From assembly GCA_036003045.1 (NCBI GenBank), contig DASYSS010000104.1:94901-158900 (forward strand): 64,000 bases of DNA, read 5' to 3'. Below, piece after piece: positions 15,606-64,000 of this stretch; the stretch's first letter is position 1; each line of letters starts with the position of its first letter. The position numbers were made by a program, and so were the translations under genes. The notes below the pieces were generated by a model, which saw only the letters and a program-made list of their open reading frames with translations, was not told the origin of the DNA and ran no database searches. The stretch comes from Gemmatimonadaceae bacterium. Its GTDB lineage: Bacteria; Gemmatimonadota; Gemmatimonadetes; Gemmatimonadales; Gemmatimonadaceae.

Positions 15606-15791
15606 ATGAATCAACCCGCGATTCGTGACGTCGCCGTCACGCGCCCATCCGGCTTTGCCGCGCTCGCCAGCGATTGGCGCTCGCCGGCGAACACCGGTCG
15701 GTTGCCGCGAGTCGAAGACGTGGCTTACACCGTCGACTCGCAGCGAATCACATCTCATGCAGGCGGTTGGACCGGAGTCCTTGCGCGATAG
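15606..15791 (+). CDS. Possible 61-aa small protein (MNQPAIRDVAVTRPSGF...)
   Basis: ATG-initiated and followed 30 nt later by a strong terminator. There is no clear SD, and third-position GC is only about 70%, lower than neighbouring genes. Confidence 0.25.
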   Translation: MNQPAIRDVAVTRPSGFAALASDWRSPANTGRLPRVEDVAYTVDSQRITSHAGGWTGVLAR

Positions 15792-15821
15792 AGCACTCCG
15801 ATCCGACTCGGGCAAGCACCT

Positions 15822-15864
15822 CCGCCCCGCCTGCGCAGCGCGCACGGCGGGGCGGTTTCGTTTT
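15822..15864 (+). terminator. Rho-independent terminator
   Basis: CCGCCCCGCC (15822-15831) pairs with GGCGGGGCGG (15846-15855), followed by TTTCGTTTT. Confidence 0.8.
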
Positions 15865-17988: not shown

Positions 17989-18031
17989 CGACGGCGGCCC
18001 CTCTATCGGGGTGCTCTGCTGAACTACCTAC

Positions 18032-18244
18032 CGCAGAGACGCGGAGGACGCAGAGTTTCGCAGAGGACAGGCCAAGTTCGAGCCGGCGCCCAACGCGCCG
18101 GATTTTTGGGGACTGCCGCTCGAGGAGCTATGCGTGCCGTGGAGACGTAGTCTTCACGACGGGTACCCCGAGCGGCTTTCACCAAGCCCCGGCTCGTCGC
18201 GCGATCATGCCGCTTTTCCTCTGCGTCCCTCTGCGTTCTCTGCG
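18032..18244. repeat. Inverted clusters of CGCAGAG-type short units (REP-like hairpin element), copy 1
   Basis: Left arm CGCAGAGA-CGCGGAGGA-CGCAGAGTTT-CGCAGAGGAC (18032-18068). Right arm CCTCTGCGTCCCTCTGCGTTCTCTGCG (18218-18244), followed by GCGGTGAGCAGTT. It ends about 30 nt from the stop codon at 18277. Confidence 0.6.
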
Positions 18245-18276
18245 ACTCAGCGGTGAGCAGTTGCCCTGCTGTTGAT

Positions 18277-50820: not shown

Positions 50821-51822
50821 ATGTTGATCCTCGACCAGCAGGCTGTCACTGATCTGCTCCCCATTCGAGAATGCATCGACTTGATGGTGTCGACGCTTTC
50901 CGCATTGGCGCGCGGTGAGACGATTCTTCCGCTCCGCACCGTCGTTTTGATTCCCGACACGAACGACGCGTTCGCGGTCATGCCGGCCTACATCGGCTCG
51001 CCGAAGACGATGGGCGCGAAGATCATCACGGTGTATCCGGGCAATCACGGCACGCAGTACGACTCGCACCAAGGTGCGGTGCTGCTGTTCGATCCGGACA
51101 ACGGCAGCCTCGCCGCGCTGCTCGATGCGACGGCCGTGACGACGATCCGCACGGCGGCGGTTTCCGCGGTGGCGACTTGGCTCCTCGCGCGGCCGAACGC
51201 GTCGACGCTCGCGATCGTCGGGGCCGGCGTCCAGGCGCACGCGCATCTCGAGTCGATGTGCGCCGTCCGCCCAATCAAGACGCTGCGTATCTGGAGCCGC
51301 ACGCCTTCCAACGCCGAGCGCCTCGCCGACGTCGCGCGCACCAAGTTCAGCCTCGAGACGACCATCTCGGCGTCGTGCGCCGACGCGGTGCGCGACGCCG
51401 ACGTGATTTGCACGACGACGTCGGCTCGCGCCCCAGTGCTCTTCGGTGAGTGGCTCACGCCGGGTACGCACATCAACGCCATTGGCGCGTCGCAGCGCAC
51501 GGCGCGTGAGCTCGATACCCAGTGCGTCGTACGTTCACGCCTCTACGTCGACCGGCGCGAGTCGGCGCTCAAGGAGCCCGGCGACACGCTCGTTCCGCTC
51601 GAAGAGGGCGCGATCACGCCCGACCACATCGTCGCCGAGATCGGCGAGCTGGCGATCGGGCGAGGTGAAGGACGGCGCGACGAGCGCGAGATCACGCTCT
51701 TCAAATCGCTCGGGCTGGCCATTGAAGATCTCGCGGCCGCGTCGTACGTGTACAACGCGGCGCGACGTGTGGGGGTGGGGGTGGAAGTGGAGCTCGGCGG
51801 GGCACGGCTTGAGGCACATTGA
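50821..51822 (+). CDS. Ornithine cyclodeaminase / mu-crystallin family NAD(P)-dependent enzyme
   Basis: The sequence AKIITVYPGN..., TTIRTAAVSAVATWLLARP, and the Rossmann motif LAIVGAGVQA are typical of the family. Confidence 0.9.
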   Translation: MLILDQQAVTDLLPIRECIDLMVSTLSALARGETILPLRTVVLIPDTNDAFAVMPAYIGSPKTMGAKIITVYPGNHGTQYDSHQGAVLLFDPDNGSLAALLDATAVTTIRTAAVSAVATWLLARPNASTLAIVGAGVQAHAHLESMCAVRPIKTLRIWSRTPSNAERLADVARTKFSLETTISASCADAVRDADVICTTTSARAPVLFGEWLTPGTHINAIGASQRTARELDTQCVVRSRLYVDRRESALKEPGDTLVPLEEGAITPDHIVAEIGELAIGRGEGRRDEREITLFKSLGLAIEDLAAASYVYNAARRVGVGVEVELGGARLEAH

Positions 51823-52759
51823 GCCGATCACGCTCGACGATGTCCGTGCGGCACAGAAGCGGATAGCGTCGACCGTACATCGCACGCCGCTCATTCGCCT
51901 CGAAGTGGACGGCCCGGCGACGATCTACCTGAAGCTCGAGAACCTCCAACCGATCGGCTCGTTCAAGCTCCGGGGTGCGACGAACGCCATTCGCTCGACG
52001 CGGCCCGGCTCTCTCGGCGACGGCGTGTACACGGCGAGCGCGGGAAACATGGCGCAAGGCGTCGCGTGGGGCGCACGCGACCTCGGCGTTCCGTGCACAG
52101 TCGTGATGCCCGACAGCGCACCGTCGACAAAGGTGAATGCCGTGAAGCGGCTTGGCGCTACGATCGTTCCACTGCCCTACGACGACTGGTGGCAGACGCT
52201 GCGCGACCACGGGCGCGCGGGAATGGCGGGGCGATTCATTCATCCTGTCGCCGACCGCGACGTGATGGCGGGCAACGGTACGATTGGTCTCGAGATCGTC
52301 GAGGATTTACCCGACGTCGATACGGTGCTCGTGCCATTCGGCGGCGGCGGACTCGTCTCGGGAATCGCGACCGCGGTGCGGGCGCTGCAGCCGAACGCCC
52401 GCGTGTACGGATGTGAAATCGAGACCTCAACACCGCTGACGGCCGCACTCACCGCCGGCCATCCCGTCGTCGTCGAGCGAACGCCGAGCTTCGTGGACGG
52501 CATCGGCGGGCGCGGCGTGCTCGAGGAGATGTGGCCGATCGTCTCGGACTTGGTGAGCGGGGCACTCGTTGCAACGCTGGCCGAGACAAAAGCGGCGATT
52601 CGTTTGATGGCCGAACGCGCGCGCGTCATCGCCGAAGGCGCGGGCGCGGTGCCGGTTGCCGCGGCTCTCGCAGGACGCGCAGGTTCTCGAACAATCGTGT
52701 GTGTCGTATCCGGCGGGAACATCGATACGCAAACGCTCGTCGAGATACTAACCGGATGA
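51809..52759 (+). CDS. PLP-dependent threonine/serine dehydratase-like enzyme
   Basis: The sequence TPLIRL...LKLENLQPIGSFKLRGATNAI contains the Lys of the SFKxRGA box. A GGGGL loop is present. The TTG start at 51809 is assumed (alternative GTG at 51767). It overlaps the upstream gene by 14 nt. Confidence 0.8.
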   Translation: MRHIEPITLDDVRAAQKRIASTVHRTPLIRLEVDGPATIYLKLENLQPIGSFKLRGATNAIRSTRPGSLGDGVYTASAGNMAQGVAWGARDLGVPCTVVMPDSAPSTKVNAVKRLGATIVPLPYDDWWQTLRDHGRAGMAGRFIHPVADRDVMAGNGTIGLEIVEDLPDVDTVLVPFGGGGLVSGIATAVRALQPNARVYGCEIETSTPLTAALTAGHPVVVERTPSFVDGIGGRGVLEEMWPIVSDLVSGALVATLAETKAAIRLMAERARVIAEGAGAVPVAAALAGRAGSRTIVCVVSGGNIDTQTLVEILTG

Positions 52760-52815
52760 CGGTGGACCGGTGGACCGGTAGACCGGTAGACCGGGAGACC
52801 GGGAGACCCGTAGAC
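52760..52815. repeat. Tandem octamer array, 7 units of CGGTRGAC type
   Basis: CGGTGGAC x2, CGGTAGAC x2, CGGGAGAC x2 and CCGTAGAC start on the base right after the stop codon at 52757-52759. Confidence 0.7.
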
Positions 52816-52879
52816 CGAACGCAACGCACCAACGGCCACGCCGCCATCGTAATCACACGGAAAAACTCAACGTAGATGA

Positions 52880-52953
52880 CGCAGACTTTGAAAATCCCGC
52901 AGACTGAGAACGGTGTTGGTTGTCCGTCTGCGTGGTCGCTGTTCAAGTCTGCG
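52880..52953. repeat. Inverted CGCAGAC/GTCTGCG unit clusters, a variant of the REP-like element
   Basis: CGCAGAC at 52880 and 52898. GTCTGCG at 52926 and 52947. It lies about 45 nt downstream of the minus-strand stop at 52996. Confidence 0.5.
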
Positions 52954-52995
52954 GAACCGTTGTTCCCTTTTTCGGTCCCGGACCTAGTGGCTCGA

Positions 52996-54051
52996 CTAGG
53001 GCTTTGGTAGCACGCTCGCCAGCTCGGGCACGCTGCTCGCGGCCGCCCAGTTTGGCATTCCGGTTTTCCAGACCAGGGTCGCTGCCGTGATCGCGCCCGA
53101 CGCCTTGAGCCCGGCCTCGTCGACCGGACCGCGGCGCTCGTTGCCGACGGCGTAGTACCAAACAACGGAGGGAAGCGGCGGCGGCTCCGATACGGACCGT
53201 GTGTTGGCGGCGGCGACCTGTTGGCCGACGACTGCGCCAACGCCGATCGCCATGCCCGCGCCGGCGGCGCCGTTGGGATTGCGGGCCGCGTCGCGGATCG
53301 CGTCGGCGCTCTGGAGACGCGTGTATCGGTCGAGATCGCCGAGCATGTTCATGCGCGTCTTTTGATCGAGCGTCGCTTCGACTTCGGGCGGCAGCGACAC
53401 GTTCTCGATGACGAGCTGCGTTATCGCCAGGCCGTACTGTTGGAACTGTGGCGCCACTTGCTCCTGCACGCGCGCGCCGATCTCGCCGTACTTGGACGAG
53501 AGCTCGTAGACTGACACGCTGCCGCCCGCGAGCACGACGCTCACCTTCGCGACGACGAGATCGCGGAGCTGTTCCGTGGTCTGATCGACGTGGAAGGTGG
53601 CGTTCGTCCCGACGAGCTCTTGGACGAACCGCTCCGCCTCGGTGACGCGGACGGCGTACGTGCCGAACGCGCGGAGGCGCACCGGTCCGAGCTCGGCATC
53701 GCGCACGATCACGGGATTCGACGTGCCCCACTTCTGCCCGATGAACTGGCGCGTGTTGAGGTAGATGACGTCGGCCTTGAACGGGCTGTGAAATCCGTAC
53801 TTCCAGCCCTGCAGACGCGACAACACGGGCACGTTTTCCGTGGAGAGCTCGTGGCGCCCGGGCATGAACATGTCGGCGATGTGGCCTTGGTCGACGAGGA
53901 TCGCGACCTGCGACTGCCGCACGATGAGCTGCGCGCCGTTCTTGATCTCGTTGTTCGGGCGCGAGAAACGCCACGCCATCGTGTCGTCGGTGTCGTCGAT
54001 CCACTCGATGACGTCGATCAGTTCGCCGGAGATGAATTCGCGCAGCGTCAT
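52996..54051 (-). CDS. SPFH/Band-7-like protein (YdjI-like) with a C-terminal GYF_2-type domain
   Basis: The start is MTLREFISGELIDVIEWIDD. The SPFH-like body resembles the 'virion core protein'-type family. The C-terminus VWYYAVGNERRGPVDEAGLKASGAITAATLVWKTGMPNWAAASSVPEL has the GYF_2 pattern. Confidence 0.85.
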   Translation of the reverse strand: MTLREFISGELIDVIEWIDDTDDTMAWRFSRPNNEIKNGAQLIVRQSQVAILVDQGHIADMFMPGRHELSTENVPVLSRLQGWKYGFHSPFKADVIYLNTRQFIGQKWGTSNPVIVRDAELGPVRLRAFGTYAVRVTEAERFVQELVGTNATFHVDQTTEQLRDLVVAKVSVVLAGGSVSVYELSSKYGEIGARVQEQVAPQFQQYGLAITQLVIENVSLPPEVEATLDQKTRMNMLGDLDRYTRLQSADAIRDAARNPNGAAGAGMAIGVGAVVGQQVAAANTRSVSEPPPLPSVVWYYAVGNERRGPVDEAGLKASGAITAATLVWKTGMPNWAAASSVPELASVLPKP

Positions 54052-54065
54052 AGGGGGAGATCTCG

Positions 54066-54818
54066 TTACGAGAAGAGAGTCTTGAGAATGAAATCCAGTG
54101 TCGCCGACCCCAGATCGATGGAGTGCGCGCTCGAGCCGCCGGTGGTGGGAAACGAGACGGTCGATGTGAACGTTCTCGTGACAACGATGTTCGGATCGAG
54201 GCCGATCGCCGAAGCCTGCGACGCCTTTCGCTCGGCCTCGGTGGCGCGCATGCGATCGAGCCCGCCGTTGGCCACGAACTGCAAGACGCCGCGCAGCTCG
54301 TCGCGCTCGAACCACACCCCGTGGTTCTTGCAGACGTCGACGATGATTCCCGACATCTTTCCGAAATTCACTCGGTTCATGACCTTGTCGCAGACCGCGC
54401 AGTGGACATAGCGCACCCGGCCTTGGTTCGGCGCCTGTGCGGCCATACCGCCGGCGCCGAGCGAGGTCATGACGGTGCCGCGCTCCTCGCGATTGCTGCA
54501 GAGCGCCGCGAAGTCATTCGGCGCGAGCCACGCGCTGCCGCACTGGTCGCATTGGTGGAGCGGCGTGGCGCCGAGCCGCACGGGATGCATCTCGCCGCTA
54601 CAGCCGGGGCATTTGAGCGTCTTGCCGTCGACCGACTCCGGCGCCTCGATCTTCGTGCCGCAGTGCGGACAGAACTGCGCGCCGACGAACATCGAGCCGA
54701 AGCACGACGGACACGCGACCACGGCGAGCCGCGAGCCGCAGTAGTCGCAGCGGGTCGCGTCAGTCGCGGCGGCGGCGCCGCAGTTGGGGCAGTTGAGCAG
54801 CGAAGAAGCGGAGGCCAT
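54066..54818 (-). CDS. Multi-zinc-ribbon protein with two simple ribbons and two TFIIB-type ribbons (YdjG-like)
   Basis: There are eight Cys pairs, six spaced CxxC and two CxnC: CPNCG..CDYCG, CPSCF..CPHCG, CPGCS..CDQCG (..AWL) and CAVCD..CKNHGVWFERDEL. Confidence 0.8.
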   Translation of the reverse strand: MASASSLLNCPNCGAAAATDATRCDYCGSRLAVVACPSCFGSMFVGAQFCPHCGTKIEAPESVDGKTLKCPGCSGEMHPVRLGATPLHQCDQCGSAWLAPNDFAALCSNREERGTVMTSLGAGGMAAQAPNQGRVRYVHCAVCDKVMNRVNFGKMSGIIVDVCKNHGVWFERDELRGVLQFVANGGLDRMRATEAERKASQASAIGLDPNIVVTRTFTSTVSFPTTGGSSAHSIDLGSATLDFILKTLFS

Positions 54819-54904
54819 CGTGGGAGCGTGGATCGGTCGTCGGAGGAGGCGCTGCGAGGCGCCACCTCCGGACGAAGACGACCACGCCGGATGACCGGCA
54901 ACCG

Positions 54905-57900
54905 CTACGGCTTCTTGCCCTTACCGATCGAGCGGTAGTACTCCTCGACGTTCTGTTTGTACGCCGGCGGGACGTCGCCAGACCGCTCCAGCAGAACGCG
55001 TGTCGAGTCGGATTCACCGAGCTTCCGACGAAGGCCGAATTCGAAATCTTTGAAGCCTTCGATGGTCTTCGCGCGCAGGTCCGACGAGATGCGCGGATCC
55101 TCGAGCGCCCGCGTGTTGGTGAGCTGCTTCAGATTGTCGATCGCCTGATCGAGCTGCTTCGTGGCCAGCCCTTGCCGCTGCAGCTCGGTGCGGAGCGCCT
55201 GCGCGTCGGCGAGACGCTGCTGCGCTTCGCGGCTGAACTGCTGCGCGTCGTCGGGCGAAAGCCGTCCGTTCGGAATTCCGCCGCCCGGCACGCCGTTCGG
55301 ATTCAACGGGCCGCCCATGCCGTTCTGCTGCTGCGAGCCGGGACGACCACCGGGAATCCCACCGCCGTTGGCCTGCTGCTGCCGACCGTTCTGACCTTGG
55401 CCGTTTCCACCCTGCCCTTGCTGTCCCTGTTGGCCCTGGCCCTGGCCTTGGCCCTGCTGGCCTTGGCCCTGCTGGCCTTGTTGCCCCTTGCCTTGCTGGC
55501 CCTGCTGTCCCTGCGAACCCTGCGCTTGGCCTTGGCCCTGTTGGCCCGGTGAACCTTGCGCCTGTCCTTGGCCTTGTTGCCCTTGTTGCCCTTGGCTCTG
55601 ACCACGCTGGCCTTGCTGGCCCTGGGCCTGGCCCTGCCCCTGCTGTCCTTGCTGACCCTGGCCGCGCTGGTCCTGTTGCGATTGCCCCTGGCCTTGCTGA
55701 CCCGACTGACCACCTTGTTGTAGACGACGGCCTTGATCGGCGCCCTGGCCGGTCGCGCCATTCTGTTCCGCGCGTTGGCGCATGCGCTCGTCCATCGACT
55801 CGAGCCCGCGCACCAGATCACGCGTCTTGTCCGCGGCCTGCGCTTGCTGACGCTGGCCATTGCCGTTCTGCGCGGCGGTCTGCGCCTGCTGCATTCGCTG
55901 ACCGAGATCGGCGATGTCCGACGCGATCTGCGGCTCCGTCGAATTGAGCCACTCGGCCGGTGCCGTCCGCGCCGCGCCGCTCGAATAGCGGAGCTTCTCT
56001 TCGGTTTTGCGTCCACGCAGCGTGTCCGCGGCGCCGCCAAGCACGCGGGACAGATCTTTCTGGTCGCGGCGGCTGTCGTTGGACATACGGTCGAGCTGAG
56101 ATTTGAGGTCCTTCACGCCCTCCGCCATCGACGCCTTCTGATCGGCGATCGACTGCTGCAGGTCTTTCGTCTGCTGCGAGCCGGAGCCACCAGCCCCTGA
56201 CTGTGCCTGTGTGAGCTTCTGCTCGTCGGACTGCACTTTCTTTTCTTGATCGGCGAGCTGTTGCGCCCGTTTGACCGCGTCGTTCAGGTCGCGCGTCCCT
56301 CGACCGTTGCGTTCCTGGTCGAGTAGGCGGCGAGCGTCGCTCAGGGCCTTGTCTGCCTGGGCCGCGTCACCGGATCCCTTGCTGCCGTTCGCGGCGGCGC
56401 GACGCATCGCGTCAGCGGCGTCCTGCAGACGGCGCGCGGCGTCGGCGAGCGATTGATTCTGCTGTTCGCGCGCGAGGCGCTCGAGCGTGCGGGCCTGATC
56501 TTCGGTCTGCTGCGCGAGATCGCGCTGGCTCTGACCGCCGGACGCACCCGACTGCCCCATGCGCGACAGGCTGTCGGCCTTGGCGCGCGCGCGCTCGTTC
56601 TCCTGCTGTTGGCGTGCGGCGAGTTGGCGCAGCTTCTCCGCCGTCTCGTCGACCTGGTTGTCGGTCTGCTGTTGTTGCTGCTGCTGGCCGCGCTGCACAG
56701 TCTCGTACTGGTTGCGCAGCTTGTCCTTCTGCAACTCGAAGATGTCGGCGAGGTCCTGCGCGTCGGTACGATTTCCGCCCCCACCCCCACCTCCGCCGCC
56801 GCCTCCCATAGAGACCTGGATCTCACGGAACACCGCCTCGGCGCGCTGGAGCTGCGCGAGCGCCTTCTGTTCCGGTGGCAACGCGGACGTCGGCGATCCC
56901 TTGGTCAGATTCTTTTCGGCCGTGTCCATCTCGGCCGCCGCCTTGGGCAAGATCTGCGCGATCTTGTTCCACGCGCTGTCGCCCTGCGCGATGCCGCGCT
57001 CGACGAGCCGGCTCGCCAGCTGGCTGGTCTGCTCGCGCAGTCGCTGCTGCGACAGCCGGATCGTGGCGAGGTTTTCGTCGAACGCTTTCTTGTCCGTCTG
57101 CGCGCTGTCGCGCGAGCTCTTGAACGTCGCCGCGATGATCTCGCGCTGCGTCTGCGAGAGTTGGTTCGCGTCGTTCTGTTGCCCGCCACCGCCGCCGCCA
57201 CCACCGCCGCCCTGCTGCTGGCGGTAGTCGTTCTCATAGGGGCGAACCTGCAAGAAGTAGATGTCGGTCGACGCGCCCTGCGCGCCGGTCACCGCGTTGT
57301 TGTCCGTGGCGTGCGCGTAATACGAGACCACGTCGCCCGGCTCGAGCTTGAGCCCCTCGAGCATGAACGTGTAGCCGGCGGATATGTCCTTGATCGCCTT
57401 CGTGCCGTCGTGCAGCGACATCGTCTGGTCGGGTCCGCCGTTCACCGAGAAGTGCAGATCGACCTTCGCGACGCCGTAGTCGTCTTCAGCGCGAACTTCG
57501 GTGTAGACCTCGTCGACCGAGAGCACCTTCGAGTCGCGGCCGGGCTTCGTGAACTGCACCGTCGGCGGACGGTCGGGCAGCACGTCGATCGTGTAGTTGA
57601 GCGAGCCGGTGACCATGCGCCCGTCGGGTCCCTGGAGCTCGACCTTGTAGAAGCCGGGCTGGTTGACGCGCAGCATCGCCATCAGCTTGCCCCCCCCGTC
57701 TTCGGTCGGCACGAGCTTGAGCGTGTCGCCGCCCTCGACGATGAGCCGGCCTCCGCTCGTCGGCACGGTTGGCGCGACGCGCACACGGACCAGCGTCCCC
57801 TTGAGCGCCGCGATGTCGCCGGTGCTGTCGACGTCGTTCGGCGGCAACTGCGTGTACGCCGGGTATCTGTACTGAAGGTCGATCTGCCGGACGAACGGCA

Positions 57901-58768
57901 GGTTCGACACATCGAGCGTGTATGTGTTCGAGCGAATGCCATTCGCCTCGACCGAGTACTGCGTCTTGGAGCCGATGTCGAAGAGGCGGAACGCGAACAC
58001 GCCGCTCGAGTCGGCCGTCATCGGGAGTCGCGTCCACGTCGTCGAGTCGGCCGCGCGTACCAGGAGCTCGACGTGATCGGACTGGAAGCCGCGCAGGTTG
58101 GCCGAGATCATCTGGTCGCCACCCTTGGCCACCGTCGCGTTCCCCGGCTCGACTGAAATGCTGAACAGCGCCGAGGCGACGTCCGTGCGCCAGGGAACAG
58201 CGACCAGCTTGAGGCCGTTCCTCAGGGCGGGAGGACCGAACATCGTGAGCAGCATCGCCGCGCCGAGCACCGCCGCGAGGATGCCGCCGTTCATCTTCAG
58301 TTCGCCGGCATCGATCGCCTTCCCGTCCCCGGCGAGACGCACGCGCTCCAGCGCCGTGCGCGTCAAACGGTCGATCAGCGCGGGCGACCGCGACGGTACA
58401 GCCGCGGCGCGCGCGCCGTTCCGCATCTCGACGGCGGTGATCACACTCGCGTTGAGCGATCGCTCGTTCTCCTCGAGGTAGAGCGCGACCTGCTCGTCGT
58501 GCAGCTTAGGGAGGAGCGGCCGAATGACGAACCACGCGGCCAATCCGAGGATCGACGCGATGGCGACGATTCGCACGGCCATCACGACCGCGTCGGCATA
58601 GTGGAACGCGTTCATCACCACGCCGCCGAGCGCAATCAGCGCCCAGCCGGCGGCAATCGTGATCGCCGCGCCGCGCAGGGCGAGCTTGAGGCGGTAGCGC
58701 GTGCGTACGTCGCGTACGACGCCGAGAAGCTGCGACTGCTCGCGACTCGAACCGTGAACGCTTTCCAT
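54905..58768 (-). CDS. 1287-aa membrane-anchored coiled-coil protein with Gln/Gly low-complexity tracts (DUF4175-like architecture)
   Basis: The ATG at 58768 follows GGGGGAGGGG. Two N-terminal TM helices are followed by LYLEENERSLNASVITAVEM. There are long Q/A/R-rich helices, two Gly10 runs and a Q/G tract of about 118 aa. Confidence 0.8.
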   Translation of the reverse strand: MESVHGSSREQSQLLGVVRDVRTRYRLKLALRGAAITIAAGWALIALGGVVMNAFHYADAVVMAVRIVAIASILGLAAWFVIRPLLPKLHDEQVALYLEENERSLNASVITAVEMRNGARAAAVPSRSPALIDRLTRTALERVRLAGDGKAIDAGELKMNGGILAAVLGAAMLLTMFGPPALRNGLKLVAVPWRTDVASALFSISVEPGNATVAKGGDQMISANLRGFQSDHVELLVRAADSTTWTRLPMTADSSGVFAFRLFDIGSKTQYSVEANGIRSNTYTLDVSNLPFVRQIDLQYRYPAYTQLPPNDVDSTGDIAALKGTLVRVRVAPTVPTSGGRLIVEGGDTLKLVPTEDGGGKLMAMLRVNQPGFYKVELQGPDGRMVTGSLNYTIDVLPDRPPTVQFTKPGRDSKVLSVDEVYTEVRAEDDYGVAKVDLHFSVNGGPDQTMSLHDGTKAIKDISAGYTFMLEGLKLEPGDVVSYYAHATDNNAVTGAQGASTDIYFLQVRPYENDYRQQQGGGGGGGGGGQQNDANQLSQTQREIIAATFKSSRDSAQTDKKAFDENLATIRLSQQRLREQTSQLASRLVERGIAQGDSAWNKIAQILPKAAAEMDTAEKNLTKGSPTSALPPEQKALAQLQRAEAVFREIQVSMGGGGGGGGGGGNRTDAQDLADIFELQKDKLRNQYETVQRGQQQQQQQTDNQVDETAEKLRQLAARQQQENERARAKADSLSRMGQSGASGGQSQRDLAQQTEDQARTLERLAREQQNQSLADAARRLQDAADAMRRAAANGSKGSGDAAQADKALSDARRLLDQERNGRGTRDLNDAVKRAQQLADQEKKVQSDEQKLTQAQSGAGGSGSQQTKDLQQSIADQKASMAEGVKDLKSQLDRMSNDSRRDQKDLSRVLGGAADTLRGRKTEEKLRYSSGAARTAPAEWLNSTEPQIASDIADLGQRMQQAQTAAQNGNGQRQQAQAADKTRDLVRGLESMDERMRQRAEQNGATGQGADQGRRLQQGGQSGQQGQGQSQQDQRGQGQQGQQGQGQAQGQQGQRGQSQGQQGQQGQGQAQGSPGQQGQGQAQGSQGQQGQQGKGQQGQQGQGQQGQGQGQGQQGQQGQGGNGQGQNGRQQQANGGGIPGGRPGSQQQNGMGGPLNPNGVPGGGIPNGRLSPDDAQQFSREAQQRLADAQALRTELQRQGLATKQLDQAIDNLKQLTNTRALEDPRISSDLRAKTIEGFKDFEFGLRRKLGESDSTRVLLERSGDVPPAYKQNVEEYYRSIGKGKKP
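55367..55720. repeat. Imperfect trinucleotide-based repeats (CTG/GCC on the plus strand) encoding the (Q/G)n tract
   Basis: The encoded tract reads QGQGQSQQDQRGQGQQGQQGQGQAQGQQGQRGQSQGQQGQQGQGQAQG.... On the plus strand this appears as ctgccc/ttgctg/ggcctt iterations. Confidence 0.6.
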
Positions 58769-58797
58769 GGTCCCCTCCCCCTTTCCCACTTCCTTCG

Positions 58798-60885
58798 TCA
58801 GCTCGTCGCGCGCGAGAGGCGATTCGAGACCGCCGTCTCGCCGGCCAGCACCAGCACCGCGACGAGCAAGAGATACCACCACAGCCGCTGACGACGCTCC
58901 TGGTCCTGCGGCGTCGCGGCGTTGAAGTCACTCCCGGCCTGCTGCTGCGCGCTCGCCGACGTCACCGCGGCGACGAGGTCCAACGGATCAAGATGCGACA
59001 AGTCCGACTCCGACGCATCGATGTTGACCGCGATCGGCCGGCCACTGCCGACCGGTGTGTCCCGGCCGCGCAACTCGTAAAACCCACGCTCGTGAAGTGT
59101 GACGAGGTGGTTCGGACCGGTCGCGGTCACTCGTTGTTTAACTCCGGACGGCGACTCGAGCGTCAATTCGGTGAGGCTATCGGCCGTGCGCCCGCCGAGG
59201 AATGGCGCCGTCAGCTCGCCGTGCCTCGAGAGGTCGAGCACTTCCCCGGTGACGAACGACGGCCGCGGGTCGATGTACCGGCCGACGTGCTTTCCGAACT
59301 GGTGCACGAACGGGAGGAAGACCGGCTGGAGCGGAAGATTCGTCCAGTACGAGTCGATGGTCGACGACCAGATCACGACGCGTCCGCTTCCGACCGCGCG
59401 CTCGACGAGCGCCGGGGATCCATCGTCGAAGCGCGCCGAGATCAGCGCCCCGGGGGACGGCGTCAACGCTCGATACCTATAAAAGCGGGCGGTGGTGAAG
59501 TCGCCGCTGCGCGGTGCGTTGAACAGCTCGAACACGGGGCTCGCGTAGTCGATCGACGACAGCGTGCCGCCGGCGTCCGATGTCCGATCGACGACGGGGC
59601 CGATCGTCGCGGGCAGCATCGCGCGCCAGGCCTGCGCCCACGTTTCGCTCCGCTCCGGGCCGGGCACGAAGACGATTCCGCCGCCCTCGTCGAGAATCGC
59701 TTTCAACTGTTGGCCGACCGCCCCGGTTGGTAACGGCGGCGCGACTTCGTCGAGCACGACGAGCGAGCGGCCGTCCAGATCTCGCGGCGTGAGCGAACCA
59801 ACCGACTTCACGTCCACCCGGAAGCTCGGCCGGTCGCCGATCGACAGCGCTCGGCTCAGGTAGAGGCTTTGGTTCGGGCGCGGGGAATTTGGCTCGACGA
59901 TCAGCACGGGCACGGACGCGTCGGGCGCGATCGTGAAGTTGCTCACGTCGTCGAGCGTCAGCGAATCCGGCGTGATGGCGATCGAGGCTTTGGTGGGCGC
60001 GTTCGGCACTGGGATCGACGTGAACGCCACCTGGAGGGCGCCGCTGGCCGGAACGTTGACGTGCTGCGTCTGCACCGTGCGTCCGCCGACGGAGAGCGTC
60101 GCCGAGACCGGCCGTGCGTTCTTGCCCGTGTTGATGAGACGCGTCGCGACGCTCACGTGATCGCGTACGCCGTTGCTGTCGCGGTCGGTCACCGGCTGCG
60201 TGACCGCGACATCCGCCGCCGTCGCGCCGCCGACATCTATGGGTGTGATGGTCGTACCGCGGGGAAAGACGATTTCGTTGTGGTTCGCCCACGCGTTCTT
60301 CTGGAAGTCCGAGACGACGACCACCTCGCGCTGCGGGAGTGTGGACGCGGAGATGATCTGCGACGCCAGCTTGAGCGCGGGGGCGTATTTCGTGGCTTCG
60401 TCGCCGAGCTTCGCGGCGCCGATCGCGGCCGCGACACGGTCCGCGGGCGCCATCGGCTCGCTGGCGACGATGGCGTCGTCGTCGAACAAGACGAGCGTCG
60501 CGCGGTCGGTGCCGGTCAGCGCGCGCACGGTCTTGCGCGCCGCGGCCTGCGCGCGCGACCACCGGTCGCCGTACGCCATGCTCGCCGACCGGTCGAGGAG
60601 AACGACGACCTCTTTCGCGCCGCTCGTCGAGATCGCTGCCGCGTGGCGCGAGAAGAACGGCCGGGCGAACGCGGCGACGAGGAGCGCGAGCGCCGCGCAT
60701 CGGAGCATGAGCAGCAACAGATGCCGGAGCTTCTGCCGCCGCACCGAGCGATACGGAATGCGCTGCAGGAACATCAGCGACGGAAACTCGACGACGACTC
60801 GTCGCTCGCGGTGGATCAGATGGATGATCACCGGAACGGCGATGGCGGCGAGACCGGCGAGGAACGCGGGAGCGAGGAAATTCAC
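58798..60885 (-). CDS. BatA_N double-TM plus von Willebrand factor A domain protein
   Basis: GTG start. MNFLAPAFLAGLAAIAVPVIIHLIHRERR is the aerotolerance-regulator N-terminal domain. VVVLLDRSASM is a VWA MIDAS start. A C-terminal TM helix is present. Confidence 0.88.
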   Translation of the reverse strand: MNFLAPAFLAGLAAIAVPVIIHLIHRERRVVVEFPSLMFLQRIPYRSVRRQKLRHLLLLMLRCAALALLVAAFARPFFSRHAAAISTSGAKEVVVLLDRSASMAYGDRWSRAQAAARKTVRALTGTDRATLVLFDDDAIVASEPMAPADRVAAAIGAAKLGDEATKYAPALKLASQIISASTLPQREVVVVSDFQKNAWANHNEIVFPRGTTITPIDVGGATAADVAVTQPVTDRDSNGVRDHVSVATRLINTGKNARPVSATLSVGGRTVQTQHVNVPASGALQVAFTSIPVPNAPTKASIAITPDSLTLDDVSNFTIAPDASVPVLIVEPNSPRPNQSLYLSRALSIGDRPSFRVDVKSVGSLTPRDLDGRSLVVLDEVAPPLPTGAVGQQLKAILDEGGGIVFVPGPERSETWAQAWRAMLPATIGPVVDRTSDAGGTLSSIDYASPVFELFNAPRSGDFTTARFYRYRALTPSPGALISARFDDGSPALVERAVGSGRVVIWSSTIDSYWTNLPLQPVFLPFVHQFGKHVGRYIDPRPSFVTGEVLDLSRHGELTAPFLGGRTADSLTELTLESPSGVKQRVTATGPNHLVTLHERGFYELRGRDTPVGSGRPIAVNIDASESDLSHLDPLDLVAAVTSASAQQQAGSDFNAATPQDQERRQRLWWYLLLVAVLVLAGETAVSNRLSRATS

Positions 60886-60897
60886 CTGGGGGGGTCC

Positions 60898-61854
60898 CTA
60901 TCGCACCCGGTTGAAGTTCTGCCGCGAGGCCAGGTACGAGAACAGCGCGCGGTCGAGCGGCTTGGAGGTGTCGAACAGCGCGTAGTCGGCGCGCGATTCC
61001 CCGATGCGCTTGGAGAGCGCGTCGGTGTGCTGCTGCACGAGCTCGCGATACTGCTTGCGCAAGTATTCGGGGATGATCGGCATCTTCGTCCCCGTTTCCA
61101 TGTCGATGAAGTTGCTCGCGTCGGAGAACGAGAAATCGATCTCGCGGGGGTCGAGCAGGTGGAACACGATCACGTCGTTGCCGCGTCCGCGTAGATGGGT
61201 GAGCGCGCGCAGAACGTCGTCCGGATCTTCGTACAGATCCGAGATGAGGACGACGACGCTTCGGCGGCGCAGCGACTCGGAGAGCTTCTTGAGCGGCGGC
61301 TGGAGGAGCGTCGCGCCCGGCGCGGGCTTCGCGCCGCGCGACCCGCCCTCGATTCGCTCGAGCGAGTGCAGCACGAGCTGGAGATGTTTGGCCGACGGCG
61401 GCACGTAGTCCACGACGTCGCGGTCGATCGCGACGAAGCCCACGCGATCGCGCTGCAGGCTCGAGAAGTATGTGAGGCACGCGGCGAGATAGCATCCGTA
61501 CGTCAGCTTCGAGACTCGCCCTGACTCGCCCTGTCCCGTGTCGCCGCCGTATCGCATCGACGGCGAGACGTCGAGCACCACCACGAAATTCGTGTTCGTG
61601 TCGGCCTCGTATTCTTTCACGTAGTGCCGGTCCGTGCGCGCGTAGAGGCGCCAATCGATGCGGCGGATGTCATCGCCCGGCATGTAGGCGCGATGCTCGG
61701 CGAAGTCTGTCGACGACCCCAGATGCGGCGAACGATGGAGGCCGTTGATGAACCCTTCGACGACGACTTTCGCGAGCAGCTCGAGATTCCCGATCCGCGC
61801 CAGAACGGCGGGATCGAGAAAGCTGGTGGGCTGGGTCGCGACCGCGGTTGCCAT
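60898..61854 (-). CDS. DUF58 domain protein (MoxR-associated, VWA-like)
   Basis: GLHRSPHLGSSTDFAEHRAYMPGDDIRRIDWRLYARTDRHYVKEYE is the hallmark DUF58 motif. Confidence 0.92.
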   Translation of the reverse strand: MATAVATQPTSFLDPAVLARIGNLELLAKVVVEGFINGLHRSPHLGSSTDFAEHRAYMPGDDIRRIDWRLYARTDRHYVKEYEADTNTNFVVVLDVSPSMRYGGDTGQGESGRVSKLTYGCYLAACLTYFSSLQRDRVGFVAIDRDVVDYVPPSAKHLQLVLHSLERIEGGSRGAKPAPGATLLQPPLKKLSESLRRRSVVVLISDLYEDPDDVLRALTHLRGRGNDVIVFHLLDPREIDFSFSDASNFIDMETGTKMPIIPEYLRKQYRELVQQHTDALSKRIGESRADYALFDTSKPLDRALFSYLASRQNFNRVR

Positions 61855-61860
61855 GGTCGA

Positions 61861-62904
61861 CTACATCCCCGACTTCGGGAGCGGCACGGCGCGCAGCAGC
61901 TTGTCGATGATCTGATCTGCCGTCACGTGCTCCGATTGCGCGTGGAAGTTCGTCAGTACGCGGTGACGCATCACCGGTTTGGCCAGCGCGCGGATGTCGT
62001 CGAAGCTCACGTTGTAGCGGCCATCCATGAGCGCGCGTGCCTTGCCGCCAAGAATCAAGTGCTGCGGCGCGCGCGTGCTGGCGCCGTACGACACCCACTG
62101 CTTGATGAAGTCGGGCGCGTTCGGTCCCGGGCGGCTCGTGCGCGCGAGGGCCACCGCGTACCGCGCAACCGGCTCGGCGATCGGCACGCGACGGATGAGC
62201 TGCTGGAAGGCGACGATGTCGGCGCCGGTGACAGCGTGTTGAAAGCGGTAGTTCTGCACGGCGGTCGTCTGCGTCGCCACACGGACCTCGTCGTCTTCCG
62301 GCAGATAGTCCATGATGATGTGGAACATGAACCGGTCGAGCTGCGCTTCAGGCAATGGATACGTGCCCTCGAGCTCGATCGGGTTCTGCGTGGCGAAGAC
62401 GTGGAACGGCTCCTTGAGCGTGTACGTCTTGCCTTGCACCGTGACGCGATGCTCTTGCATCGCCTCGAGCAGCGCCGCCTGGGTTTTGGGCGGCGTACGG
62501 TTGATTTCGTCGGCGAGGACGATGTTGGCGAAGATCGGTCCCGGCGTGAACACGAGCCGCCGACCGCCCGTCTCCGGATCGTCCTGAATGATGTCCGTAC
62601 CGGTGATATCGCTCGGCATCAGGTCGGGCGTGAACTGGATGCGCGAAAACTTGAGGTCGAGCACCTGCGAGACGGTGTTGATCAACAGCGTCTTGGCCAG
62701 GCCGGGCACGCCGACGATCAGACTGTTGCCGCCGGTGAAGAGCGACAGCAGCACGAGCTCGATCACGTCCTCTTGGCCGACGATCAACTTGTGCAGCTCG
62801 GAGATGATCTGGTCATGTCCGGCTTTGAGCCGGTCCGCGAGCGCGATGTCGTCGTGGGATTCGAGCGCCGGTGCCTTCGTTTGAGGCGTAATCGTCGAGG
62901 CCAA
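61861..62904 (-). CDS. MoxR-family AAA+ ATPase
   Basis: The sequence IVGQEDVIELVLLSLFTGGNSLIVGVPGLAKT contains Walker A. ADEINR is Walker B. The sequence ALLEAMQEHRVTV is typical of AAA_3. The only in-frame start available is an apparent TTG. Confidence 0.92.
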   Translation of the reverse strand: MASTITPQTKAPALESHDDIALADRLKAGHDQIISELHKLIVGQEDVIELVLLSLFTGGNSLIVGVPGLAKTLLINTVSQVLDLKFSRIQFTPDLMPSDITGTDIIQDDPETGGRRLVFTPGPIFANIVLADEINRTPPKTQAALLEAMQEHRVTVQGKTYTLKEPFHVFATQNPIELEGTYPLPEAQLDRFMFHIIMDYLPEDDEVRVATQTTAVQNYRFQHAVTGADIVAFQQLIRRVPIAEPVARYAVALARTSRPGPNAPDFIKQWVSYGASTRAPQHLILGGKARALMDGRYNVSFDDIRALAKPVMRHRVLTNFHAQSEHVTADQIIDKLLRAVPLPKSGM

Positions 62905-62958
62905 GAGAAAATCTCGGTTGAGGTGATTCCCGGTACGAACAAATCAACAGCCTTGAAC

Positions 62959-63062
62959 CGCAGAGGACGCAGGGAACGCGGAGGTCCGCAGAGGACTGCA
63001 TCGATCTTGTGTTGGTCAGTCCACGTTGTTTCTCTGCGTCTCTGCGTCTCTGCGTCTCTGCG
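62959..63062. repeat. Inverted clusters of CGCAGAG-type short units (REP-like hairpin element), copy 2
   Basis: Left arm CGCAGAGGA-CGCAGGGAA-CGCGGAGGTC-CGCAGAGGAC (62959-62996). Right arm (CTCTGCGT)x4 (63032-63062), followed by GGTGAGGCAGTT, the same tail as copy 1. It ends 20 nt from the stop at 63083. Confidence 0.65.
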
Positions 63063-63082
63063 GTGAGGCAGTTTCGTTTTGC

Positions 63083-63934
63083 CTAGTGAGTCAAAGCGTA
63101 GATCACGTAGTTGATGCCTAGCTTGTAGATCTCGTTCGCTTGGGCAATGGGTACAAAGCCCGACGAGGACCACTGCCACGACTCGCCGATGTCGTTGTCG
63201 ACGTTGGCGAGCACGATCATACGCTTCTTCGGGTCGTTGTCCTGGTACACCGTCCAGTACGTCGGCGGCTGATTGCCGTACGCCGACCGCGACGGCCAGA
63301 CGACCGCCGACTTCATGTCGATGTCGAAGAACGAGTGAAAGATCTGCTCGTTGCCGGTGAGCTGCACCCATTTCGCGCTGGGGATCGCGGCCGCCATGAT
63401 CTGGCGCAGATTGGTCCAGTCGTAGTTGCCGCCCCACCCTTCACGGAAATCGTCGAAGATCATGAAGCCGCCCTTCAACAGATACGAACGGAACGCGGCG
63501 ACCTCCTTCTCCGACGGATGCCAACCGCCCGGCTCCGACATGTAGCTCACGGGATACTTGAAGAGCAGCGGGTCGTCCACCGCGACGAGAACGCTCCCCA
63601 CCATCGGGCCCTGCACCACGAACGGATGCACGTTCGTGATGTCGCGCAGGATCTTCGCGAAGTTCTCTTCGGCGTCCGGATAGTCGTGCGACCACCCGGG
63701 CCCTTCCCGCCCGGCCCAATGGTCGAAGCCTTTGTATCGAATGCGCGCGAACGTGAAGCGGCCGTCGTACGGAACGTTCCCGGCGAATTCCGGCGGCTGG
63801 TACATCTCATCGGGACCGCCGAAGTACTGACCGAATCCCCCACCGCCTCGTGTCGGCCGACGCTGCGCCGACCCCGCGCTGACGGCGACGGCGCTCACCG
63901 CGCAGACGAGTGCCGCGATTCGGATGGAGTTCAT
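63083..63934 (-). CDS. DUF4159 domain protein, secreted
   Basis: Signal peptide. YDGRFTFARIRY...GWSHDYPDAEENF...YMSEPG.W..S..E...R.YLLKGGFMIFDDF is typical of DUF4159. Confidence 0.9.
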   Translation of the reverse strand: MNSIRIAALVCAVSAVAVSAGSAQRRPTRGGGGFGQYFGGPDEMYQPPEFAGNVPYDGRFTFARIRYKGFDHWAGREGPGWSHDYPDAEENFAKILRDITNVHPFVVQGPMVGSVLVAVDDPLLFKYPVSYMSEPGGWHPSEKEVAAFRSYLLKGGFMIFDDFREGWGGNYDWTNLRQIMAAAIPSAKWVQLTGNEQIFHSFFDIDMKSAVVWPSRSAYGNQPPTYWTVYQDNDPKKRMIVLANVDNDIGESWQWSSSGFVPIAQANEIYKLGINYVIYALTH

Positions 63935-64000
63935 GGTCGCTTTTCTCCGGCTTGCTTCGTCCGGGCATCGTACAGCGTGAGCAGCAACGTCTGCGCCTTT
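63931..64000 (-). CDS. 3' end of an unidentified upstream gene (partial)
   Basis: The minus-strand frame reads ...KAQTLLLTLYDARTKQAGEKRP*, and its TGA overlaps the DUF4159 ATG (ATGA). It is too short to assign. Confidence 0.35.
   Translation of the reverse strand, partial: KAQTLLLTLYDARTKQAGEKRP

Follow-up and report, generated by a model that had tools for sequence, protein, structure and literature searches.

Gene content of the locus

We analysed a 64,000-nucleotide stretch of DNA from a Gemmatimonadaceae bacterium (hereafter the window), in which seven co-directional ORFs occupy the minus strand within 52996-63934 (Table 1). All seven products have the expected Pfam domains, each called above the Pfam gathering score, and the gaps along the cluster, computed from the ORF coordinates, are 178, 6, 12, 29, 86 and 14 bp, with 6 bp separating MoxR from DUF58. 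The co-directional order, the domain assignments and the gap lengths given in a preliminary description of this DNA were thus all reproduced. That description also implied that the cluster starts at 63934; at this end, however, the start codon of the DUF4159 gene is overlapped by an upstream ORF. The final 22 residues of this ORF agree completely with the C-terminal end of an 884-aa protein in a related stretch (L043:2181-4835) with TPR_19 (3e-27) and Peptidase_MA_2 (5e-13) domains in Pfam, and only the last 22 codons of the TPR/Peptidase_MA_2 gene fall inside the window. The SPFH gene has its ATG at 54051, with the mechanical ORF list extending the same frame to 54315, and the PALP gene probably starts later than its ORF.

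Table 1 Features of the cluster and its flanks (window coordinates)
Feature	Position	Strand	Basis or remark
TPR/Peptidase_MA_2 homolog, 3' end	63931..64000	-	Runs off window end; stop overlaps DUF4159 ATG (ATGA)
DUF4159 protein, 283 aa	63083..63934	-	Pfam DUF4159 8.5e-39
Spacer, 178 bp, REP/MITE-like element	62905..63082	.	Repeat analysis and spacer comparison
MoxR AAA+ ATPase, 347 aa	61861..62904	-	AAA_3 1.7e-60, plus AAA_lid_2
DUF58 protein (VWA-like), 318 aa	60898..61854	-	DUF58 5.8e-43
BatA_N + VWA protein, 695 aa	58798..60885	-	BatA 1.4e-20, VWA_2 3e-13, TIGR02226 7.9e-22
Giant DUF4175 protein, 1287 aa from ATG	54905..58768	-	DUF4175 1.4e-13
86-bp gap, two stem-loops	54819..54904	-	Folding; main stem-loop ~54836-54882
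Four-zinc-ribbon (Zn) protein, 250 aa	54066..54818	-	Zn_ribbon_TFIIB 1.8e-12 (2x), DZR 8e-10
SPFH + GYF_2 protein, 351 aa	52996..54051	-	Band_7_1 2.7e-84, GYF_2 1e-16
Convergent SPFH/PALP intergenic region	52760..52995	.	Octamer array and strong hairpins
PALP (pyridoxal-phosphate enzyme) gene	51446..52759	+	Convergent to SPFH gene; ORF start given
OCD_Mu_crystall gene	50821..51822	+	Upstream of PALP

Domain architecture and predicted topology

The MoxR ATPase is cytoplasmic, and the product of the adjacent DUF58 gene, DUF58 being the usual partner of MoxR, has no transmembrane segment. The BatA_N/VWA protein, in which BatA_N is the TIGR02226 double-transmembrane domain, has transmembrane helices at 3-21 and 56-74 and a third at the C-terminus; the predicted orientation of its VWA domain is periplasmic, on the positive-inside rule and by likeness to BB0173, for which this orientation of a BatA-type VWA domain has been shown (PMC5700661). 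The DUF4159 protein, which begins with a hydrophobic segment resembling a signal peptide, is predicted to be exported. PDB sequence searches returned one uncharacterised DUF4159-like structure, 4i66, beyond the GYF region of GltJ and generic zinc ribbons.

The giant protein has three transmembrane helices (near 29-53, 60-78 and 163-181), with a conserved helical loop of ~85 aa between membrane helices that is cytoplasmic by predicted topology. Three tandem beta-sandwich domains (aa 203-510) are followed by Gly runs, a long Q-rich helical stretch, a low-complexity Q/G segment of ~200 aa (Q+G = 78% across aa 1001-1100) and a conserved C-terminal domain of ~120 aa. The Pfam DUF4175 match (50.2 bits; cut-off 27.3) covers 137 of the 825 profile positions (192-328), and there was no match to NCBIfam TIGR02302. 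Foldseek with the N-terminal 570 aa returned generic tandem Ig/macroglobulin-like matches with low TM-scores and no specific functional lead. Acinetobacter AdvA was considered as a lead and set aside; it is annotated DUF4175 but is a small, different division protein. Literature searches on DUF4175, DUF4159, TIGR02226 and TIGR02302 yielded no functional study of an operon of this type.

The Zn protein contains four zinc ribbons in total (DZR and two Zn_ribbon_TFIIB), with no hydrophobic segment that reaches the transmembrane threshold and no signal peptide. The SPFH protein, built of Band_7_1, a Gly/Ala-rich linker and a C-terminal GYF_2, is soluble and likewise lacks a transmembrane segment and a signal peptide, whereas the BatA, DUF4175 and DUF4159 proteins each have one or the other. 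The predicted compartments differ, with the bulk of the BatA, DUF4175 and DUF4159 proteins in the periplasm and the Zn and SPFH proteins in the cytoplasm. In PADLOC, the Zn protein weakly matched HEC-08 (E 2e-4) through its zinc ribbons, and neither the SPFH protein nor the MoxR-module proteins had a significant match.

The conserved operon ends at the giant gene

Among about a hundred related DNA stretches that served as the comparison set, the order DUF4159-MoxR-DUF58-BatA_N/VWA-DUF4175 is kept in L040, L043, L044 and L045, with the DUF4159 gene directly upstream of MoxR in each. L042 keeps the order without DUF4159, and in L041 tblastn located the genes of the MoxR operon in a frameshifted assembly. 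Identity to the giant protein of the window is 74% in L040, 57% in L042, 46% in L044 and 41% in L045. GATase1_like and TPR/Peptidase_MA_2 genes stand upstream of the DUF4159/MoxR genes in relatives. The earlier proposal that the DUF4175-like giant belongs with the MoxR cluster holds, as the order recurs in Gemmatimonadota and Acidobacteriota-type contigs, and by gene order the conserved MoxR operon closes with the giant gene.

On the right-hand side, the conserved backbone consists of PALP/OCD, which border the giant gene where relatives lack the Zn/SPFH pair. The window and L043 have the giant, Zn and SPFH genes, followed by convergent PALP-OCD-CsbD; in L040, the nearest outgroup, the giant gene is followed by PALP-OCD with stops 10 bp apart and no pair. 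We retrieved a metagenome sample of 44 loci with the C-terminus of the giant protein. In 36 of them (C-terminus 68-83% identical), the giant gene is followed by a small 88-aa ORF and then PALP/OCD, with Zn and SPFH missing, and this ORF is what the slot between giant and PALP holds in most relatives. Only L051 (100%), L091 (94%) and L052 (87%) carry Zn, and in L052 the Zn gene adjoins the giant gene with SPFH missing. The same backbone position thus occurs in four states (88-aa ORF, Zn, Zn plus SPFH, and empty), an insertion or deletion observed directly at fixed flanks.

The adjacency of giant and Zn is limited to relatives with a giant C-terminus at least 87% identical, within which it is retained in at least five species-level MAGs; it is missing in 36 and 5 operon relatives and in 6 and 21 pair relatives and so does not extend beyond close relatives. 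The synteny check proposed in the preliminary description therefore went against it, with the pair found next to MoxR/DUF58/BatA only in a shallow clade. A chimeric join at the Q/G low-complexity region could in principle have created the junction during assembly, given that this region breaks many assemblies and that many database homologs are partial or frameshifted. Such an artefact is effectively refuted: the junction, with a spacer of the 86-bp type, is present in five independent long-read MAGs and in independent short-read contigs, L051 is 100% identical over the giant C-terminus, Zn and SPFH and 99% over PALP, and the junction lies 350 bp past the low-complexity region, within unique sequence.

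The pair also occurs elsewhere. Adjacent Zn and SPFH-GYF genes were found without MoxR, DUF58, BatA or DUF4175 in six Gemmatimonadota-type neighbourhoods (L005, L007, L046, L048, L050 and L096), which have no other gene in common with the 38-64 kb part of the window, and none of the 21 SPFH-GYF loci sampled in Streptomyces, Nitrospirae and Kangiella contained a MoxR-cluster gene in its full 10 kb of upstream sequence. Judged from these neighbourhoods, the zinc-ribbon and SPFH-GYF genes make up a mobile module of two genes that stands on its own. In other phyla, a crude CxxC scan found no zinc-ribbon ORF upstream of SPFH-GYF. Separately, downstream of SPFH-GYF in Streptomyces lies a gene whose protein weakly matches an IBR-type zinc finger, and a Nitrospirae SPFH-GYF homolog adjoins a protein with DUF4178, which we take to be the YdjH-type domain.

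A hairpin separates the giant gene from the pair

The 86-bp gap between the giant and Zn genes folds strongly (-49.5 kcal/mol, z -3.7, 0 of 200 shuffles), and its stem-loop is conserved in all close relatives, with no U-tract in the window. This hairpin was detected by folding, not by a canonical terminator scan, which returned 9 sites against 7.8 expected and none in the relevant minus-strand gaps. Outside the clade, a perfect stem of 11-20 bp lies within ~50 nt of the giant's stop in 20 of 37 distinct sequences, often with A and T flanks, and the hairpin of the window occupies the position of these terminator-like hairpins of its relatives. A sigma-70 scan yielded a single site in 12 kb, no more than expected by chance, and no promoter for the pair, Gemmatimonadota promoters being poorly known. 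A candidate common promoter upstream of Zn was rejected; the 200 nt in L005, L007, L046, L048 and L050 share no motif with the gap of the window. Rfam gave no meaningful match on 52000-64000.

SPFH proteins commonly scaffold membrane complexes, and in this clade the MoxR operon might have captured the pair at its 3' end, with the pair co-transcribed by read-through and serving as a membrane scaffold for the MoxR/VWA proteins. Co-transcription would fit with genes that point the same way across 86 bp, a hairpin that lacks a U-tract and a pair for which no promoter could be recognised, and the giant/Zn junction is kept in three metagenome contigs as well as in five species-level MAGs. Moreover, YdjI, an SPFH protein of Bacillus subtilis, needs membrane partners (PMC8581546), and the pair encodes none; the persistence of Zn beside the giant gene in L052 could also hint at a link between those two proteins. 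We nevertheless consider capture with a shared function unlikely, because the arrangement is not conserved past the shallow clade in either direction, the predicted compartments of the two sets of proteins differ, the hairpin stands at the ancestral terminator position and L052 has lost SPFH yet kept the operon. It is similarly doubtful that the pair, behind a degenerate terminator without a U-tract, is co-expressed with the MoxR-DUF4175 operon as a young, lineage-specific link between SPFH and MoxR/VWA proteins; were this so, the Zn gene that persists in L052 would be its trace.

Repeat elements flank the region. The 178-bp spacer between DUF4159 and MoxR contains a tandem octamer array, (GCAGAGAC)x4, at 63031-63062 together with inverted copies, and a second copy of the element lies at 18030-18252, which makes its earlier designation as REP-like reasonable. 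The element is clade-specific, the spacer measuring 32-53 bp in more distant relatives. The SPFH-PALP intergenic region carries another octamer array, (CGGTAGAC)x7, at 52760-52817, with strong hairpins (z -3.7). A candidate target-site duplication, CCGGATGAC... (9-nt exact, 18-nt at 78%), at 52752-52769 and 54887-54904 was discarded, its copies not being kept in L043 or L052.

These repeats on the flanks, the four states at one backbone position and the weak HEC-08 match of Zn would suit a slot between giant and PALP that acts as a variable cargo hotspot for interchangeable accessory genes (for example, for stress or defence) unrelated to their flanks. This is very unlikely: integrase, transposase and tRNA are all missing at the slot, the candidate flanking repeat is not conserved in L043, PADLOC gave nothing significant for the SPFH and MoxR-module proteins, and elsewhere the pair is a stable chromosomal module.

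Two probable units side by side

We propose, with a probability of about 80%, that the locus consists of two separate units of known type juxtaposed by a lineage-specific insertion, so that their adjacency is a historical accident and not a combined machine. Unit 1 would be a Bat-like envelope operon comprising GATase1_like, TPR/Peptidase_MA_2, DUF4159, MoxR, DUF58, BatA_N-VWA and DUF4175 and ending at the giant gene. From what is known of these families, cytoplasmic MoxR and the VWA-like DUF58 protein would act on the BatA-type VWA protein and on the giant protein with its beta-sandwich, coiled-coil and Q/G regions, both anchored in the inner membrane and mostly periplasmic, with which the exported DUF4159 protein would also work. 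Unit 2 would be a two-gene cytoplasmic module, by family knowledge akin in general kind to the membrane-stress proteins YdjG/YdjI (SamG/SamI). Its arrival in the slot that follows unit 1 and faces the convergent PALP/OCD genes would date to the ancestor of a single shallow clade of Gemmatimonadaceae.

The preliminary description had centred on the coupling of a MoxR/VWA machine with an SPFH scaffold, which, if true, would newly combine two membrane-associated systems that are both poorly understood. The pair, however, is absent from the same backbone in L040 and 36 contigs and stands alone in six neighbourhoods. With the giant gene as the end of the operon, and with the pair at this spot in only one narrow Gemmatimonadaceae lineage, a combined machine is unsupported. 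The case is a reminder that genes may sit close together in one direction where an operon ends without this being evidence of function. What the analysis leaves of use is a delimited, widespread and uncharacterised Bat-like operon in Gemmatimonadota and Acidobacteriota and a domain map of its giant protein.

Comparison with known systems

Unit 1 resembles the Bat-type operons of Bacteroides, Leptospira and Borrelia, which likewise bring together MoxR, DUF58 and a BatA_N double-transmembrane plus VWA protein in one tight operon, and both contain a TPR protein, which in unit 1 is encoded upstream. BatB, BatC, BatD and BatE had been described as absent. This stands for the second VWA membrane protein (BatB), BatD (PF13584) and BatE (TPR+SH3), none of which is among the seven products or the called genes of L040, L043, L044 and L045. 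The apparent lack of a TPR partner, however, is a window-edge artefact, because the operon runs past the edge into the TPR/Peptidase_MA_2 gene, which provides a BatC-like TPR protein in the operon. Unit 1 differs from Bat in its own DUF4159, GATase1_like and TPR/Peptidase_MA_2 fusion proteins and in the giant DUF4175 protein encoded last.

Going by family annotations, long Gln/Gly-rich membrane proteins of the DUF4175/TIGR02302 type presumably adjoin MoxR-DUF58-TIGR02226 genes. The giant protein shares with them N-terminal transmembrane helices (2-3 in the type), a long, predicted-external Q/G region and a position directly after the BatA_N protein, but it is larger (1287 aa), contains three beta-sandwich domains as well as a conserved domain at the C-terminus, and does not match TIGR02302.

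The pair had been likened to YdjG/YdjI. As in B. subtilis pspA-ydjGHI (samGHI), an unanchored soluble SPFH protein with a low-complexity linker is encoded beside a zinc-ribbon gene (PMC8581546, PMC9239133, bioRxiv 10.64898/2026.02.06.704340). The likeness holds for the SPFH and zinc-ribbon domains but falls short of a demonstrated YdjG equivalent: YdjG is a transmembrane zinc-ribbon protein (PMC9239133, PMC8581546), whereas the Zn protein carries four ribbons and lacks a transmembrane helix. Furthermore, SamI/YdjI ends in a zinc finger and the SPFH protein of the window in GYF_2. No DUF4178 gene (YdjH type) lies between or beside Zn and SPFH in the window, the genes called near the pair in L043, L046, L048, L050 and L096 included none with a PspA domain, and a tblastn search with an approximate E. 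coli PspA query, a weak test, had no match in the window.

A further match links the GYF_2 domain of the SPFH protein to the GYF region of Myxococcus GltJ (NF033761 E 6e-8; PDB 7z3c E 0.008), with a score far below the cut-off of the GltJ family (32 against 450 bits), and, unlike the GltJ context, the pair has no gliding-motility genes nearby. In GltJ, zinc ribbon and GYF are combined as cytoplasmic domains of one protein, whereas in the window they are divided between two, fused to or paired with SPFH.

Two known-type modules side by side

All seven co-directional minus-strand ORFs of the preliminary description were found at 52996-63934, with intergenic gaps (178, 6, 12, 29, 86 and 14 bp) that match the ORF coordinates, and a Pfam profile search placed every product well over the gathering score of the family assigned to it by eye. 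An NCBIfam search also identified the TIGR02226 double-transmembrane domain in the BatA-like protein. None of the seven genes had a further copy elsewhere in the 64-kb window, and searches of the region for defence systems and Rfam families returned no signal and no match, respectively. Nothing pointed to an assembly artefact at the junction of the DUF4175 and zinc-ribbon genes, as independent long-read and short-read assemblies contain the same junction.

TPR proteins had been described as absent. However, an ORF crossing the window end (64000) overlaps the DUF4159 start by ATGA, and its final 22 residues are identical to the C terminus of an 884-aa TPR and Peptidase_MA_2 protein in L043, the closest long contig. 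A TPR component is therefore present but runs off the window, and its apparent absence is an artefact of the window edge. A 305-aa ORF lies farther upstream, as does a GATase1_like gene.

Features of the window and of related loci
Feature	Location	Strand	Remarks
SPFH+GYF_2	52996-54051	-	ORF with sensible start
Zinc-ribbon protein	54066-54818	-	ORF with sensible start
DUF4175 giant protein, 1287 aa	54905-58768	-	ORF with sensible start
BatA_N+VWA	58798-60885	-	ORF with sensible start
DUF58	60898-61854	-	ORF with sensible start
MoxR	61861-62904	-	ORF with sensible start
DUF4159	63083-63934	-	ORF with sensible start
Dispersed REP/MITE-like element	62945-63066 and 18030-18252		Octamer arrays; one end has (GCAGAGAC)n, the other inverted CCTCTGCG copies
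Second tandem octamer array, (CGGTAGAC)x7	52760-52817		Directly after PALP stop codon
88-aa ORF (example)	L092:6432-6695	- (of locus)	In the giant-PALP slot

The zinc-ribbon/SPFH pair occupies a slot between conserved blocks

The link between the giant DUF4175 protein and MoxR/DUF58/BatA proved real and conserved. Homologs of its N-terminal 570 aa carry a DUF4175 annotation in Gemmatimonadota and Vicinamibacteria/Acidobacteriota. In L040 (giant protein 74% identical), the order is GATase1_like, TPR/Peptidase_MA_2, DUF4159, MoxR, DUF58, BatA/VWA and DUF4175, followed directly by PALP and OCD, the convergent genes next to the pair in the window, with 10 bp between the giant and PALP stop codons. 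In the more distant relatives L042, L044 and L045 (57-41%), the MoxR-DUF58-BatA-DUF4175 core is still present, accompanied by DUF4159 in L044 and L045, with different downstream genes. Neither a Band_7 nor a zinc-ribbon gene occurs in any of these four contigs.

A metagenome scan with the conserved C-terminal 131 aa of the giant protein returned 44 loci. At 36 of these loci (68-83% identical), a conserved opposite-strand ORF of 88 aa (MRTITD..EWTVFEV..GWLCFES..KRRLTPVP; L053-L092) comes after the giant gene, with PALP/OCD beyond it wherever the contig is long enough. This ORF has no Pfam match and no copy in the window or L040. The zinc-ribbon gene was present only in L051, L091 and L052 (100%, 94% and 87% identity at the giant C terminus, respectively). 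In L052 (1182-2102) it follows the giant gene with SPFH missing and 27 bp separating its stop from that of PALP, an arrangement that marks an intermediate or else a deletion.

Separately, the Q/G low-complexity DNA of the giant gene (window 55260-55750) consists of 6-36-bp periodic repeats and breaks short-read assemblies; database homologs are mostly 'partial', many metagenome contigs begin just past this region and the gene is frameshift-split in long-read MAGs.

The converse search, which started from the SPFH protein and covered one genome per GTDB species, identified 39 loci, which were then compared with the seven products by tblastn. Collinearity of all seven genes was limited to five uncultured Gemmatimonadaceae MAGs (L001-L004 and L008; SPFH identity 83-92%). 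In the next Gemmatimonadaceae (L005 and L007; about 65% by tblastn), the zinc-ribbon and SPFH genes are still adjacent and are the only genes in common with window 38-64 kb. Judged by Pfam-labelled genes, the pair lies in four further unrelated neighbourhoods (L046/47, L048/49, L050 and L096; 60-67%), typically bordered by opposite-strand genes. At 21 SPFH-GYF loci of Streptomyces, Nitrospirae and Kangiella, the full 10 kb upstream contained no MoxR, DUF58, BatA or DUF4175 gene. Unrelated to this finding, eCIS_core and AAA genes resembling a contractile injection system adjoin the stand-alone pair in L050 (11833-21098).

Because both flanks persist without it in L040 and the 36 metagenome loci, the pair is an indel restricted to a shallow clade, sited in the slot that separates two conserved blocks. 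The proposed coupling of a MoxR/VWA machine to an SPFH membrane scaffold thus does not pass the synteny test put forward with it: the region is two known-type modules side by side. Lineage-specific co-expression of the pair with the MoxR operon retains a small chance, and we consider it improbable.

Hairpins and repeat elements

In relatives in which the giant gene is terminal, long perfect hairpins lie 3′ of its stop codon. Stems of 11-20 bp occur in 20 of 37 distinct non-clade sequences, many with A-rich and T-rich flanks characteristic of bidirectional intrinsic terminators. The 86-bp gap between the giant and zinc-ribbon genes likewise holds a stem-loop that folds strongly (96 nt at −49.5 kcal/mol; z −3.7; 0/200 shuffles) and is conserved in L001-L004, L008 and L052 with substitutions that preserve the stem; in the window it has no U-tract. 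These features would fit a terminator or attenuator carried over from the end of the operon.

The DUF4159-MoxR spacer contains a (GCAGAGAC)x4 array and inverted copies, and the label 'REP-like' is fair because the element recurs with matching ends elsewhere in the window. This copy enlarges the spacer to 178 bp, compared with 32-53 bp in L040, L044 and L045. The (CGGTAGAC) array also occurs in L043, a close relative (about 15790-15835).

Predicted layout of the MoxR/VWA operon

From hydropathy and the positive-inside rule, MoxR and DUF58 are predicted to be cytoplasmic and DUF4159 exported. Two helices at the N terminus and a third at the C terminus are predicted to anchor the BatA-like protein and leave its VWA domain outside, in agreement with the layout shown for Borrelia BB0173 (PMC5700661); its predicted cytoplasmic loop spans aa 22-55. 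For the giant protein, the prediction is a cytoplasmic N terminus, three transmembrane helices enclosing a conserved helical cytoplasmic loop of ~85 aa at positions 79-162, and some 1100 residues outside. In an AlphaFold model (50 homologs; mean pLDDT 80), aa 203-510 form three beta-sandwich domains in tandem; the Foldseek matches were generic Ig/macroglobulin-like arrays. We infer a Bat-like trans-envelope MoxR/VWA system, in which the MoxR ATPase and DUF58 would act on the membrane-anchored periplasmic proteins by remodelling or assembling them.

Comparison of the pair with known systems

The suggested resemblance to B. subtilis YdjG/YdjI holds for domain type but not beyond it. Missing beside the window pair are the PspA and DUF4178 genes of pspA-ydjGHI (samGHI); DUF4178 is what we take to be the YdjH-type domain. 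In a Nitrospirae MAG, a 639-aa DUF4178 protein follows the SPFH-GYF homolog (L030:11097-13016), which suggests that YdjGHI-like partners of the Band_7_1 family persist in other phyla. Moreover, YdjG (SamG) is membrane-integral and YdjI (SamI) ends in a zinc finger (PMC8581546, PMC9239133, bioRxiv 10.64898/2026.02.06.704340), whereas hydropathy revealed no transmembrane segment or signal peptide in either window protein and the SPFH protein carries GYF instead. Its GYF_2 domain (window 52996-53150), preceded by a PPPLP motif, is closest to the GYF domain of GltJ, a gliding protein of Myxococcus (NF033761, E 6e-8; PDB 7z3c, E 0.008). As GltJ has a zinc ribbon as well as GYF, this match points to a recurring zinc-ribbon/GYF partnership.
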